Source: Escherichia phage RB3. From it: a stretch of 64,000 nucleotides of DNA. The stretch lies in the sequence record KM606994; one strand, given 5' to 3'. Below are positions 3,078 through 6,687 of the stretch, piece by piece. Under the pieces are notes generated by a model, which did not search any database, was not told where the DNA came from, and worked only from the letters and a program-made list of their open reading frames with translations. The translations under genes were made by a program, and so were the position numbers. The stretch's first letter is position 1, and every line of letters starts with the position of its first letter.

Positions 3078-3106
3078 CCAAAAAGCCCCAACCTTTCGGT
3101 CGGGGC
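3078..3106 (-). terminator. rho-independent terminator ending the tRNA/stable RNA transcription unit
   Basis: Minus-strand hairpin GCCCCGACC-GAAA-GGTTGGGGC followed by TTTTT. Confidence 0.6.
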
Positions 3107-3158
3107 TAAGCCTTGCGGCAACCTTGTCGGGGTTCCACCTGCTAAGGCAAGTGTTTGT

Positions 3159-3301
3159 ACGAAACGCCGGGATTCGAACCCGGTTATTAAGCAGTTGACG
3201 CTACTCAATATTTTTAAAAGGCCATATCTCGACCATATCCGAACGTTCCGTCAAAAACGCTACTCGGCTTACGGCAAAGATATTTCCTCGAATCGATAAT
3301 T
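3159..3301 (-). ncRNA. putative tRNA-like stable RNA (about 140 nt), boundaries approximate
   Basis: No ORF; canonical T-arm CCGGG-TTCGAAT-CCCGG followed by 7-nt acceptor-like strand, but no matching 5' acceptor strand within tRNA distance; internal repeat TTGAGTAGCGT twice. Confidence 0.3.
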
Positions 3302-3423
3302 TGGTGCGCCGTTTCTGCTGTGATATAAGGGGGCATTAACAAAACATAAAGATTTATTAATGCCAGTCCTTAAACAGGGAACATCAGTCCGACGACTTGC
3401 CGGTAGCGACCCGGCTTCTTGTC
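3302..3423 (-). ncRNA. putative stable RNA (about 120 nt) ending in GGCGCACCA, boundaries approximate
   Basis: Starts directly after tRNA-Arg; hairpins GCCGG-GTCGCTA-CCGGC and GGCATTAA..TTAATGCC; 3' end resembles acceptor plus CCA. Confidence 0.3.
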
Positions 3424-3499
3424 TGGTCGAGGCAGTAGGGATCGAACCTACGACCCAGGACTTAGAAGGTCCTTGCTCTTCCTTCTGAGCTATGCCTCG
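3424..3499 (-). tRNA. tRNA-Arg (anticodon UCU)
   Basis: Manual fold: acceptor CGAGGCA/TGCCTCG, anticodon loop CTTCTAA, T-loop GGTTCGATCC, encoded CCA. Confidence 0.85.
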
Positions 3500-3503
3500 T
3501 ATT

Positions 3504-3578
3504 TGGCGGACGTGATAGGATTCGAACCTATAACCAATCGCTTAACAGGCGATCGCTCTGCCATTGAGCTACACATCC
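3504..3578 (-). tRNA. tRNA-Asn (anticodon GUU)
   Basis: Manual fold: acceptor GGATGTG/CACGTCC, D-arm GCTC-AATGGCA-GAGC, anticodon loop CTGTTAA, T-arm ATAGG-TTCGAAT-CCTAT, CCA. Confidence 0.85.
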
Positions 3579-3582
3579 AAAT

Positions 3583-3669
3583 TGGTGGGGAGTGATGGAG
3601 TCGAACCACCCGAGTCGCAATGACAATGGATTTACAGTCCACACCGCTACCTCTACGGGATAACTCCCC
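3583..3669 (-). tRNA. tRNA-Tyr (anticodon GUA), class II with long variable arm
   Basis: Manual fold: acceptor GGGGAGT/ACTCCCC, anticodon loop CTGTAAA, long variable arm, T-loop TTCGACT, CCA; 87 nt. Confidence 0.8.
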
Positions 3670-3678
3670 TAATTAATT

Positions 3679-3753
3679 TGGTGGCCCTGGGTGGAATTGA
3701 ACCACCATCTGGCGATTATGAGTCGCTTGCTTGAACCTTCCAGCTACAGGGCC
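3679..3753 (-). tRNA. tRNA with CAU anticodon (Ile if lysidine-modified, otherwise Met)
   Basis: Manual fold: acceptor GGCCCTG/CAGGGCC, anticodon loop CTCATAA, T-loop GGTTCAATTCC, CCA; sits where T4 has tRNA-Ile. Confidence 0.85.
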
Positions 3754-3754
3754 T

Positions 3755-3830
3755 TGGCGCTGATTGACGGAATCGAACCGCCGACATCCTCATTACAAGT
3801 GAGGTGCTCTACCTACTGAGCTAAATCAGC
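3755..3830 (-). tRNA. tRNA-Thr (anticodon UGU)
   Basis: Acceptor GCTGATT/AATCAGC, D-loop TAGCTCAGTAGGTAGAGC, anticodon loop CTTGTAA, T-loop GGTTCGATTCC, CCA. Confidence 0.9.
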
Positions 3831-3835
3831 AAAAC

Positions 3836-3925
3836 TGGCGGAGGCGATAGGATTTGAACCTATGAGTCGCCGGAGCGACTGCCGGTTTTCAAGACCGGTG
3901 CATTAAACCACTCTGCCACGCCTCC
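3836..3925 (-). tRNA. tRNA-Ser (anticodon UGA), class II
   Basis: Acceptor GGAGGCG/CGCCTCC, anticodon loop CTTGAAA, long variable arm, T-loop GGTTCAAATCC, CCA; 90 nt. Confidence 0.9.
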
Positions 3926-3927
3926 AG

Positions 3928-4001
3928 TCTCCATACAAGGATTTGAACCTTGGACCTCCTGATCCCAAATCAGGCGCTCTACCAAACTGAGCTACACGGA
4001 G
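3928..4001 (-). tRNA. tRNA-Pro (anticodon UGG)
   Basis: Acceptor CTCCGTG/TATGGAG with G-U pairs, D-loop TAGCTCAGTTTGGTAGAGC, anticodon loop TTTGGGA, T-loop GGTTCAAATCC; CCA not encoded. Confidence 0.9.
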
Positions 4002-4011
4002 TAAATTAAAT

Positions 4012-4085
<74 letters not shown>

Positions 4086-4090
4086 AAATT

Positions 4091-4177
4091 TGGTGCGAGA
4101 AGTGGGACTCGAACCCACAAGGAAATCATTCCGCAGCATTTTAAGTGCTGTGCCTTTACCAATTTGACCATTCTCGC
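4091..4177 (-). tRNA. tRNA-Leu (anticodon UAA), class II
   Basis: Acceptor GCGAGAA/TTCTCGC, anticodon loop CTTAAAA, long variable arm, T-loop GGTTCGAGTCC, CCA; 87 nt. Confidence 0.9.
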
Positions 4178-4178
4178 G

Positions 4179-4251
4179 CTGGGAATAAAGGACTCGAACC
4201 TTTGCATCCTGGAATCAAAATCCAGTGCCTTACCAACTTGGCTAATTCCCA
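4179..4251 (-). tRNA. tRNA-Gln (anticodon UUG)
   Basis: Acceptor TGGGAAT/ATTCCCA, anticodon loop TTTTGAT, T-loop GGTTCGAGTCC; CCA not encoded; 1 nt from tRNA-Leu. Confidence 0.9.
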
Positions 4252-4348
4252 ATTATTAACAAAGGCTCTCTAACAAGAACCCTTGATGATAGAGGGTATT
4301 AATCAGTGCGGTATGAGTTAATAATAACAAATAATTCTTAAAGCATAT

Positions 4349-4636
4349 TTACCATTTATGATAATACGTATTTACGATACATTCAAGACCCAAAGGATTC
4401 TTGAAAATATCATATTCAAGAGGACCTTTTTCTGTTTCAATAAAGAAATCAAAATTTACTATATTAAATTTACGGTCTTCCTTCACTAATTTAACCTGAG
4501 AAGATGAACGGTCAATGTAAACCTTTTCAACTTCAAAACATGTTAAAATGCCATAATCATCAATCAAGTCTTTAGCTGCTTCTTGATCATATTTATATCC
4601 ATTTTCAATGGATGATACTTTAGCATAAAGAATCAT
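4349..4636 (-). CDS. hypothetical protein (95 aa), ip-locus accessory gene
   Basis: ORF tightly packed after the 136-aa ORF (2-nt gap); no recognisable motif. Confidence 0.5.
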   Translation of the reverse strand: MILYAKVSSIENGYKYDQEAAKDLIDDYGILTCFEVEKVYIDRSSSQVKLVKEDRKFNIVNFDFFIETEKGPLEYDIFKNPLGLECIVNTYYHKW

Positions 4637-4638
4637 TA

Positions 4639-5049
4639 TCAGCCTCTATCAACGATAGTATGAGTATGGGCATTTACGATTTGCCACCAATCAAAGCGAT
4701 TGGAACCATAATCCGGTTTATTTTCATTTTCTTTAATGATATCACGTAGTTTATCTTCTGTTTCAGCATACGCAATTAAATCATCATATCCACCACAAGG
4801 ATAATAATTATCACCTGCAAATAAAAGAAAATTTACCTTAGATGGATTTACGTAATAATGATCTTTAGGGTATTTAGTTCCTCTCCAATCAGTTACTTCA
4901 ACATAACGATAAGAAAATCCATTTTTGCTTTCAATCCAACTCCACGCTTCAAAAGGAGTATTAAAAACTTTATCAGGTATTAAATTACCTTCAAAATGAG
5001 AAGGATTTGCATAATCCCCAGCATAAACATAATATTCGTTAATACTCAT
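4639..5049 (-). CDS. hypothetical protein (136 aa), aromatic-rich, ip-locus accessory gene
   Basis: ATG start directly abutting stop of upstream 61-aa ORF; Tyr/Trp-rich, no known motif. Confidence 0.55.
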   Translation of the reverse strand: MSINEYYVYAGDYANPSHFEGNLIPDKVFNTPFEAWSWIESKNGFSYRYVEVTDWRGTKYPKDHYYVNPSKVNFLLFAGDNYYPCGGYDDLIAYAETEDKLRDIIKENENKPDYGSNRFDWWQIVNAHTHTIVDRG

Positions 5050-5235
5050 TTATTCACCTTTAGAAATTTTATCCATAACAATAGCGATTAAACCAATTAA
5101 AAATGCTACTACAAGTGAAAACACATTTTCTGCTGTAGTCAATAATCCGCATATAAATCCAACAAACATTGAAAAACTAAAAGCAGAAGCAGAAATTGCA
5201 ATAGCAACATTTCGAATTAATTCACAGCGTTTCAT
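5050..5235 (-). CDS. small membrane protein (61 aa)
   Basis: ORF track 5050-5295 trimmed to ATG at 5235 with GAGGAG Shine-Dalgarno; two hydrophobic helices (VAIAISASAFSFSMFVGFICGLL, VVAFLIGLIAIV). Confidence 0.45.
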   Translation of the reverse strand: MKRCELIRNVAIAISASAFSFSMFVGFICGLLTTAENVFSLVVAFLIGLIAIVMDKISKGE

Positions 5236-5263
5236 TTTATTCTCCTCGGTAGTTGATAGGGTA

Positions 5264-5293
5264 ATAGTATCACTACTAAAACCCCATGTAAAC
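5264..5293 (-). promoter_or_regulatory. T4-type early promoter, repeat copy A
   Basis: Minus-strand GTTTAC at 5293-5288, 18-nt spacer, TACTAT at 5269-5264; shares about 55-nt core with copies B and C. Confidence 0.45.
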
Positions 5294-5311
5294 AACTTTG
5301 TGAATTATTTA

Positions 5312-5599
5312 TTACAAAAGATTTTTAGCAATAATCTTGAGATGTGCCGCAGAAATGTGTTTAGCTTTAAACAACGCAGTTTCTTCAGCAGGAGAGATAA
5401 CGATTGTAGCACCATCCTTTTTAGCAGACCACCCATCACCTAGGTAAACAGTACCTTTGATTTCTTCACCATCAACCAGACTAATCATCGGTTTACCTTC
5501 TCGTCCTTTATTTGCTTTAATAACTTCAGAAGTAAGAGTAGCTTCAGTAATAGTAGAAACCGGGGTAGTCGTAGAAGTAAATTCTTTGAAAGTTTTCAT
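5312..5599 (-). CDS. ipI: internal protein I-like head protein with N-terminal capsid-targeting sequence
   Basis: 95 aa; N-terminus MKTFKEF...ITE matches internal-protein targeting sequence with gp21-type cleavage site; position between tRNAs and 57B as in T4; assignment to ipI by position and length only. Confidence 0.6.
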   Translation of the reverse strand: MKTFKEFTSTTTPVSTITEATLTSEVIKANKGREGKPMISLVDGEEIKGTVYLGDGWSAKKDGATIVISPAEETALFKAKHISAAHLKIIAKNLL

Positions 5600-5629
5600 T
5601 TTATTTTCCTAATTAATTTTGATGAGATA

Positions 5630-5659
5630 ATAGTATCATAACTAAAACCCCATGTAAAC
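5630..5659 (-). promoter_or_regulatory. T4-type early promoter, repeat copy B
   Basis: GTTTAC at 5659-5654, 18-nt spacer, TACTAT at 5635-5630. Confidence 0.45.
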
Positions 5660-5671
5660 AACTTTGTGAAA

Positions 5672-5929
5672 TTATTTTAAATCTTCTAATCGTTTCTTCA
5701 TCTTAGAACCATTTTTAGCGATTTCACCTGCATCGGAGCATAATGCTAAAAGTGCTTTAACTTTCGTTTGGTCTCCTTTAAAAGACGAAGGATCGACTGC
5801 AGCAGCAAGTTCTTTAATACGGGAGAAAAGACGCTCAGCTTCAGCTAAAGCCATTCCAAGCTTTACTTCCATACCGTGAGAAGATTCAGTGATAGTAGTT
5901 TTTGTAGCAAACTCTTTGAAAGTTTTCAT
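5672..5929 (-). CDS. second capsid-targeting-sequence internal-protein candidate (85 aa), divergent mature domain
   Basis: N-terminus MKTFKEFATKTTITE almost identical to the ipI-like ORF through the predicted cleavage site, rest unrelated; own promoter copy. Confidence 0.6.
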   Translation of the reverse strand: MKTFKEFATKTTITESSHGMEVKLGMALAEAERLFSRIKELAAAVDPSSFKGDQTKVKALLALCSDAGEIAKNGSKMKKRLEDLK

Positions 5930-5960
5930 TTTTATTTTCCTAATTAATTTTGATGAGGTA

Positions 5961-5990
5961 ATAGTATCACTACCTCATCAGTATGTAAAC
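5961..5990 (-). promoter_or_regulatory. T4-type early promoter, repeat copy C
   Basis: GTTTAC at 5990-5985, 18-nt spacer, TACTAT at 5966-5961. Confidence 0.45.
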
Positions 5991-6002
5991 AACTTTGTGA
6001 AA

Positions 6003-6687
<685 letters not shown>

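Follow-up and report, generated by a model that had tools for sequence, protein, structure and literature searches.

In this study, we analyzed three small genes at positions 4349–5235, on the minus strand, of a 64,000-nucleotide (nt) stretch of the genome of Escherichia phage RB3 (KM606994; "the window" below means this whole stretch), and it is virtually certain from sequence comparison that they are the orthologs of trna.4, trna.3 and trna.2 of phage T4 in a T-even phage of the RB5/RB6 type. The trio is no new element: it was catalogued in 1985, and all T-even genomes carry annotations of it. The points that are new are descriptive: the position of the trio as the leader of a transcription unit for tRNAs, the wide extent of the Y07C family, to which the C-terminal domain of Trna.3 belongs, and a mosaic N-terminal half of trna.3. 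The explanation that best accommodates our results as a whole combines the above identity with early expression and with a role as a dispensable accessory module of the binding type, and we give it an even chance of being correct.

The assignment as trna.4, trna.3 and trna.2 follows from DNA identity, agreeing annotations and PHROG matches. Megablast searches gave DNA identities for the stretch of 100% to RB5, RB6, RB7, RB9 and RB10, 99.6% to RB14, and 96.9% to T4 across trna.2 to ipI, with trna.2, trna.3, trna.4 and ipI being the T4 genes beneath the match. Amino acid identity to T4 is 100% for Trna.4, 99% for Trna.3 (100% in its N-terminal half and 98.5% in its C-terminal half) and 95.8% for Trna.2. 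Full-length PHROG matches were obtained for trna.4 (phrog_1692, 6e-35), trna.3 (phrog_1411, 2.5e-51) and trna.2 (phrog_2023, 3e-47), all of which have function unassigned. The T4 and RB5 records have the same gene order and the same 2-nt and 0-nt gaps, and the identity check against T4 found no sequence or synteny mismatch with trna.2–4. The genes are ORF2, ORF3 and ORF4 of GenBank X03016, the 1985 record of the T4 tRNA region (UniProt P13322, P13323 and P13324), and exactly these proteins go under the public names "hypothetical protein" or [quoted passage not shown]. No paralogs of any of the three were found elsewhere in the window. As a side observation, the 61-residue Trna.4 and the 136-residue Trna.3, although unrelated, share one 90%-identity cluster, and fused gene calls may bridge them.

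The first-pass annotation of this DNA, made from the letters alone, had described three head-to-tail open reading frames (ORFs) of 61, 136 and 95 codons with gaps of 0–2 nt between ipI and the tRNA cluster, and the sequence bears out these coordinates and junctions, as well as the positions of ipI (PF11634) upstream and, on the same strand, of a downstream group of ten tRNA genes. Its remark that T4 has segB and small ORFs in this region needs amending, as the trio, at 96.9% DNA identity, are those T4 ORFs and not extras, and segB is absent from this phage. A GAGGAG Shine-Dalgarno sequence is present 5' of the trna.4 ATG. The trna.4/trna.3 junction has a gap of 0 nt (...GGTGAATAA directly followed by ATG), with the Shine-Dalgarno sequence AAGGTGA inside trna.4, and the trna.3/trna.2 junction has a gap of 2 nt (...GAGGCTGA-TA-ATG), with GAGG inside trna.3. 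Such ribosome-binding sites embedded in the upstream genes would allow coupled translation.

Upstream of trna.4, the promoter scan identified an early promoter, TTTACA-17-TACTAT preceded by TG, at 5292..5264 (GTTTAC at 5293..5288 and TACTAT at 5269..5264), and RNA folding identified a stem-loop between and over the promoter hexamers at 5287..5256 (-20.7 kcal/mol for a 90-nt stretch, z = -2.9). In X03016, the same site of T4 carries two overlapping labels, early promoter PE1 and a "pot. IpI terminator" stem-loop. This cassette is one of three copies of a ~89-nt repeat, the others being at 5599–5687 and 5930–6018, and the copies stand before trna.4, ipI and the ip5-like gene. It would start a polycistronic early mRNA. 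Putative motifs for PE1, the middle promoter PM2 and the late promoter PL2 were all found at the corresponding window positions, with PM2 directly 3' of the trna.2 stop codon (Table 1).

No terminator-like site was found by the terminator scan in the 97 nt between trna.2 and tRNA-Gln, and between 6100 and 2900 on the minus strand a terminator-like hairpin with a T run occurs just once, after rnaC; the region 3084..3422 is the end of the transcription unit. With no terminator after trna.2, early transcription is expected to proceed through the tRNA genes to rnaD and rnaC, so that the most apt description of the trio is a translated leader within the transcription unit of the tRNAs rather than a closed three-gene operon. 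The T4 cluster was reported, with reference to Broida and Abelson, to be transcribed mainly from a middle promoter just upstream, with transcription ending after the species I RNA (PMC2330249). We hold with good confidence that the architecture is that of an early read-through unit in which the tRNA genes are additionally served by middle and late promoters of their own. The initial description of a three-gene operon behind one GTTTAC promoter was thus right as to the promoter but incomplete, as it took in neither the lack of a terminator before the tRNA genes nor the middle promoter after trna.2 and the late promoter inside it. Separately, a fourth hexamer pair (TTTACA-17-TACTAT with TG) is present at 2917–2945 on the minus strand, beyond the rnaC terminator, where it presumably drives the early genes on the e.8 side, and part of its flank (2899–2925) repeats sequence found upstream of trna.4 (5246–5272).

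Table 1. Features of the trna.4–trna.2 region and its surroundings in the RB3 window.
Feature	Position	Strand	Description	Basis
trna.4 ortholog	5235..5050	minus	61 residues, starts MKRCELIRN...	ORF list, sequence
trna.3 ortholog	5049..4639	minus	136 residues	ORF list, sequence
trna.3 N-terminal half	4837..5049	minus	residues 1–71; polymorphic, swapped by recombination	
trna.3 C-terminal domain	4642..4836	minus	residues 72–136; Phage_T4_Y07C (PF26894)	profile search, alignments
trna.2 ortholog	4636..4349	minus	95 residues	ORF list, sequence
Early promoter cassette	5233..5321	minus	upstream of trna.4	promoter scan, repeat family, RNA fold
Late-promoter motif TATAAATA	4590..4597	minus	putative PL2 of the T4 map, inside trna.2	sequence; position mapped from X03016
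Middle promoter PM2	4321..4347	minus	putative; MotA box TATGCTT 4347..4341, -10 TATTAT 4326..4321	sequence, X03016
tRNA cluster	3424..4251	minus	ten genes: Gln, Leu, Gly, Pro, Ser, Thr, Met/Ile-CAU, Tyr, Asn, Arg	ARAGORN, Rfam, RB5 annotation
rnaD	3302–3422	minus		RB5 annotation mapped onto window
rnaC	3158–3296	minus		RB5 annotation mapped onto window
Terminator-like hairpin and T run	3107..3084	minus	after rnaC	terminator scan
ipI	5599..5312	minus	PF11634, 7e-54	
ip5-like ORF	5929..5672	minus	85 residues	
57B (acb1)	6003–6461	minus	152 residues; Acb1 (PF23474, 2.7e-60)	

Matches to the trio were found by tblastn in 766 (trna.3), 802 (trna.2) and 789 (trna.4) phage records, compared with 1553 for gene 1 and 1484 for 57B. 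Most of the records are from Tevenvirinae of Enterobacteriaceae (Escherichia, Shigella, Yersinia, Salmonella and some Klebsiella); phages of Aeromonas, Acinetobacter and Vibrio were absent among the groups listed, and a few stray records match (e.g., Bacillus, Pseudomonas). The ratio of nonsynonymous to synonymous divergence (dN/dS) was 0–0.5 for every gene in every comparison, and 0–0.2 for trna.4 and the C-terminal domain of trna.3. JS98 (Dhakavirus), PEi26 (Kanagawavirus) and Melville (Gelderlandvirus) retain the order trna.4-trna.3-trna.2-tRNAs with proteins that are 50–70% identical, and the trio is positioned upstream of tRNA clusters in T4, RB5, JS98, PEi26, Melville, slur08 and WilhelmHis. 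There is some variation on this arrangement. The Edwardsiella phage PEi26 (L011, 2501–3557) has an extra ORF of 63 residues between trna.4 and trna.3, and the Salmonella phage Melville (L012, 2147–3006) has trna.4, an extra 61-residue ORF for a membrane protein with a single helix, a 70-residue stand-alone Y07C domain, and trna.2. The keeping of gene order despite the divergence of the proteins is more telling than the tight packing of the genes.

Published data sets for T4 provide expression and fitness information for the orthologs. In the supplement of a time-resolved omics study (PMC9697503), the early class includes the RNAs of trna.2, trna.3 and trna.4, the tRNAs and, at the protein level, Trna.2 and Trna.3, while the membrane protein Trna.4 was not detected. 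Purifying dN/dS values, the wide distribution in phages, and this detection of RNA and protein together establish that the three are real genes rather than chance ORFs. In the HIDEN-SEQ transposon screen of T4 (bioRxiv 10.1101/2025.11.20.689424), trna.2, trna.3 and trna.4 are classed as "Non-essential", with insertions in 23/25, 39/40 and 16/17 TA sites, respectively (92–98%), and all three are "Not Fit" in the CRISPRi-ART study (PMC11879866). The early expression and accessory status that the first-pass annotation had supposed are therefore both borne out by the T4 orthologs. In one HIDEN-SEQ comparison (the sheet before Data S4), trna.4 insertions had a log2 fold change (log2FC) of +2.74 (p 0.21, not significant after correction), with trna.2 and trna.3 unchanged; that rise could be noise from a single jackpot insertion. 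A full-text search of the searchable library found trna.2/3/4, Y07C, PF26894 and the UniProt accessions in supplementary tables only, with no discussion of them in text.

The protein for which the most could be determined is Trna.3. It is acidic (isoelectric point [pI] 4.85) and indeed as aromatic-rich as it had appeared at first reading, with phenylalanine, tryptophan and tyrosine (F+W+Y) making up 19.1% of its residues versus 9.6% in the long ORFs of the window. Its AlphaFold2 model (mean predicted local distance difference test [pLDDT] score of 81) predicts two beta-alpha-beta units, and alignment of its relatives showed variability in the N-terminal half and strong conservation in the C-terminal half. 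The latter carries the motif FLLFaGxxYYPxGGxxDL ... DWWQIVD, an instance of the Y07C family motif hhhFxGxxYYPxGGxxD ... (D)WWQIVD, within a unit of ~65 residues that alignments and the AlphaFold2 model suggest to be beta-(beta)-alpha-beta-beta. Residues F6, G8, Y11, Y12, G15, G16, D19 and W50 of the family are invariant or nearly so. The precomputed label PF26894, "Phage_T4_Y07C", is attached to the 99%-identical cluster representative of Trna.3 and to all its relatives, none of which has an informative name, and the domain is also linked to phrog_17649, phrog_4811 and phrog_5638.

An exhaustive profile search identified 534 clusters at 50% identity (E <= 0.001), nearly all matching profile positions 63–126 only, and most members are stand-alone proteins of 58–90 residues. 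Stand-alone Y07C genes are found in phage-like arrays of small ORFs beside DNA methylases, RusA, ParB-N, HNH, Macro-domain and DNA-processing genes. A few members have rare fusions, to an N-terminal XRE-type helix-turn-helix (as in P0087; HTH_31, 1e-9) or to an N-terminal Cys4 segment with two CxxC pairs (as in P0119). These fusions would fit a self-association or binding module better than an enzyme, and there are hints that the domain is an oligomerization or sensor module. The JGI label "dodecin" on a distant member (P0285) was considered and rejected, as no dodecin family or fold match was obtained. In an unrelated, phage-like contig from Logan SRR21686408 (L008; 4237–5207 and 6338–10207), a stand-alone Y07C gene is located 17 nt after the last of three tRNA-Ser genes and ~1.1 kb upstream of the gene for a protein of >1,900 residues with helicase and 2',5'-RNA-ligase/Acb1-like matches.

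The N-terminal half of trna.3 has a different history from its surroundings. When the window was compared with two other Tequatrovirus phages, slur08 and WilhelmHis, DNA identity was 95–100% through trna.4, fell to 40–55% within ~30 nt of the trna.3 start codon, returned to 82–92% in the region for the C-terminal domain, and was 93–100% in trna.2. Synonymous divergence (dS) in the N-terminal half is ~1.4, versus 0.06–0.16 in the flanks, and its dN/dS is 0.3–0.5. Because dS is so much higher than in the flanks, the variants of this half are ancient alleles moved by recombination and not the product of a recent burst of mutation. The allele of T4 and RB5 (>=80% overall identity) is a minority one, present in 126 of 766 records. 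Alignment of the N-terminal half to the Y07C family with hhalign (probability 44%, E 2.4e-4, 47 columns in register) suggested that it may be a degenerate internal repeat of the C-terminal domain, a similarity that hmmsearch did not detect.

Less could be determined for the other two proteins. Trna.4 has two hydrophobic segments (~residues 9–31 and 37–54 by Kyte-Doolittle analysis; grand average of hydropathy 1.22) and basic N- and C-termini, and it is predicted to sit in the inner membrane as a hairpin, in agreement with its original description as a two-helix membrane protein of 61 residues. Its only Pfam matches were sub-threshold ones to domains of unknown function (DUF7554, at chance level). 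Trna.2, of 95 residues, is acidic (pI 4.8), and its AlphaFold2 model had a pLDDT of 47, too low for a fold search. A match of Trna.2 to TusC (E 0.0075) was rejected as sub-threshold and at chance level, and a relationship of Trna.2 to either half of Trna.3 was not supported by hhalign.

Profile and structure-based homology searches, which had been proposed as a check when the trio was first described as lacking an assignable motif, matched no characterized family or solved structure. None of the three proteins had an above-threshold match in a local copy of Pfam, in NCBIfam or in PADLOC, and sequence searches of the PDB with Trna.2, Trna.3 and the Y07C profile gave no match. Foldseek comparison of the Trna.3 model found nothing with E < 1 in the PDB and only uncharacterized phage proteins in BFVD. 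No catalytic motif was found in Trna.2 or Trna.3, nor a match to an enzyme family or fold, and no significant similarity to a known anti-defense family or fold was found in the PDB, BFVD or family searches.

Directly upstream of the trio are two known anti-defense genes, ipI and acb1. IpI is an inhibitor of the GmrS/GmrD nuclease. Gene 57B corresponds to acb1, whose product is a phosphodiesterase that counters the cyclic-oligonucleotide-based antiphage signaling system (CBASS) (PMC9117128). Relative to T4, an extra gene, noted as "Ip5" in RB5, is present between ipI and 57B; the N-terminus of its product, MKTFKEF, is common to IpI and probably capsid-targeting, and the gene is preceded by a copy of the ~89-nt promoter cassette. 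Repeated modules of promoter plus gene make up the internal-protein locus. On the other side of the trio, the tRNA cluster includes Asn, Tyr and a CAU-anticodon tRNA beyond the T4 set and is uninterrupted, with no segB, in agreement with the absence of segB from RB6, RB7 and RB9 (PMC2330249).

The functional reading that we favor, tentatively and at somewhat under even probability, is that the trio forms an accessory module, early and dispensable, whose products act by binding, with modulation of the host or counter-defense on some hosts being its most likely role. This reading is based on the neighboring ipI and acb1 genes, the promoter cassette that the trio shares with these neighbors, the combination of early expression, dispensability and conservation, and the half of trna.3 that is swapped, with sharp mosaic boundaries, among otherwise nearly identical phages. 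The small-ORF arrays in which stand-alone Y07C genes occur, beside methylases, RusA, HNH and Macro-domain genes, also point toward interaction with the host. Action as a binder rather than an enzyme is suggested by the lack of an enzyme family or fold match, by the mostly stand-alone occurrence of the ~65-residue Y07C domain, and by its occasional XRE and Cys4 fusions. The products would be a 61-residue inner-membrane hairpin and two small acidic soluble proteins, which would modulate a component of the cell that is important in certain hosts only. Potentially, the Y07C mini-domain of Trna.3 would be the self-associating or target-binding unit, and the swapped N-terminal half would confer allele-specific recognition. 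That the role is specifically one in anti-defense is a guess, prompted by the ipI and acb1 neighbors and the swapped half of trna.3; the T4 orthologs are dispensable on a naive host, as such genes would be.

Several results weigh against this reading. In the HIDEN-SEQ study, over the limited set of defenses covered, the trio was not found to be required when a specific defense was present: the conditional hits named in the text for RexAB, RnlAB, CBASS, DarTG1/2, Mokosh, Septu, minimal medium and clinical isolates are other genes, and in two comparison sheets the log2FC values of the trio were 0.06–0.25 and 0.08–2.74, none of them significant. The ORFs inserted within the trio in PEi26 and Melville indicate that a three-protein complex is not required. 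Five of 12 junctions between coding sequences in the T4 neighborhood are of 2 nt or less, as tight packing is usual in T4-type genomes, and therefore packing alone does not demonstrate a functional unit. In three translated Y07C contexts outside the Tevenvirinae, no trna.2-like or membrane-protein neighbor was found. The idea of an internal duplication in Trna.3 has an hhalign probability of only 44% and is invisible to hmmsearch, and the conserved aromatic residues may merely form the core of a very small fold.

The main rival to a binding-type accessory module is that the three genes are functionally unrelated neighbors in ordinary T4-type packing, each with its own role (for instance, Trna.4 in superinfection exclusion, lysis timing or transport), which we consider rather unlikely, although it is favored by the above junction counts and by the extra ORFs in PEi26 and Melville. 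It is also consistent with the very different rates at which the genes have diverged, trna.4 being at least 99% identical in 427 of 789 phage records versus less than 60% identity for trna.3 in 451 records, and with the stand-alone Y07C genes elsewhere that have no trna.2- or trna.4-like neighbors. However, unrelated genes would not readily account for the order trna.4-Y07C-trna.2 being kept over at least four genera of Tevenvirinae with proteins only 50–70% identical, nor for the ribosome-binding sites situated inside the preceding genes.

A bolder version of a binding role, to which we assign a small probability, is that the trio is a conserved counter-measure coupled to the tRNA genes of T-even phages. 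Y07C would then be a new family of phage-encoded binders, with an immune protein of the host, a nucleotide-derived signal or an effector directed against tRNAs as its target; it would have been duplicated in Trna.3 and its N-terminal copy swapped in an arms race, with Trna.4 anchoring or delivering its soluble partners at the inner membrane. Possibly, the proteins instead serve the adjacent tRNA genes, through maturation, modification, charging or protection against host anticodon nucleases, but the chance of this is slim. The conserved position upstream of tRNA clusters and the absence of a terminator in between would suit such a role, as would the presence of a tRNA gene within 5 kb in 3 of 12 independent Y07C contexts outside the Tevenvirinae (at 17 nt in the Logan contig, 1.3 kb and 2.6 kb), an enrichment that is unproven without a background rate. 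Nine of those 12 contexts have no nearby tRNA, however, Trna.2 and Trna.3 are acidic (pI 4.8) with no RNA-binding or modification motif, and synteny is so high throughout the subfamily that linkage alone is weak evidence. In addition, one of the two HIDEN-SEQ comparison sheets concerns a host that strongly requires the tRNA-repair gene pseT (log2FC -5.27), in which trna.2, trna.3, trna.4 and the tRNA genes had no effect.

The weakest alternative, a very improbable one, is that translation of the ~0.9-kb stretch is itself the function, with ribosomes shielding early read-through from Rho-dependent termination or setting transcript stability and the proteins being of little consequence: the ORFs do fill the interval from early promoter to tRNA genes with almost no untranslated gaps, and the T4 tRNAs are classed as early transcripts, but there is strong purifying selection on the proteins (dN/dS 0–0.2 for trna.4 and the trna.3 C-terminal domain), the Trna.4 protein is identical in hundreds of phages despite synonymous change, Trna.2 and Trna.3 have been detected as proteins, conservation of the Y07C domain extends over hundreds of unrelated phage lineages, and transcription of the tRNA cluster is reported to start mainly at a middle promoter of its own.

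The trio is a pointer to the "dark matter" that persists in the best-studied of phages, being expressed early, under purifying selection in ~800 sequenced phages, and situated beside ipI and acb1. Assigning a function to Trna.3 would annotate at once the large Y07C family found in those hundreds of lineages, and the sharply bounded, ancient alleles of the N-terminal half of trna.3 represent a concrete handle on that function.

Comparison with known systems places the trio most closely beside its counterpart in T4, with which it has in common gene order, strand, gaps, and the early PE1, middle PM2 and late PL2 promoters. Differences are confined to the surroundings: in this phage segB is missing, the tRNA genes number ten against eight in T4, and an internal-protein gene is added between ipI and 57B. 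With PF26894 and PHROGs 1411, 17649, 4811 and 5638, whose functions are unassigned, Trna.3 shares the family motif in its C-terminal 65 residues; most members of that family are stand-alone proteins in unrelated phages, whereas in Trna.3 the domain is preceded by a polymorphic N-terminal half that is confined to Tevenvirinae. The upstream cassette resembles the PeSL (early promoter and stem-loop) cassettes of T4-type phages, which likewise are repeated before successive small genes of a variable region (PMC2839356, PMC4122927). The three copies here have the repetition, the promoter and the stable stem-loop of that class, a resemblance judged without sequence comparison to the published PeSL consensus. 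Here, in contrast to PeSL cassettes, no T run follows the stem-loop, so terminator activity is not predicted by the scan, and the recombination boundary is at the trna.4/trna.3 junction and not at the cassette.

As in the trio, the T4 genes ipI and acb1 are small, early or injected, and dispensable on laboratory hosts, and they are located in the same variable block with the same type of promoter cassette. There is, however, no sequence or fold similarity between them and the trio, whose proteins have neither the capsid-targeting N-terminus shared by the ip gene products (MKTFKEF...) nor the 2H phosphoesterase motifs of Acb1. With its predicted hairpin, Trna.4 fits the pattern of small phage membrane proteins of the Imm, holin and antiholin type, which have one or two transmembrane segments in fewer than 100 residues. 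By functional analogy only, the trio also resembles Acb2, Tad1, Tad2 and anti-CRISPR proteins, with which it has in common small size, the lack of a catalytic motif, a wide spread among phages, location in arrays of small early ORFs, and a conserved surface rich in aromatic residues.

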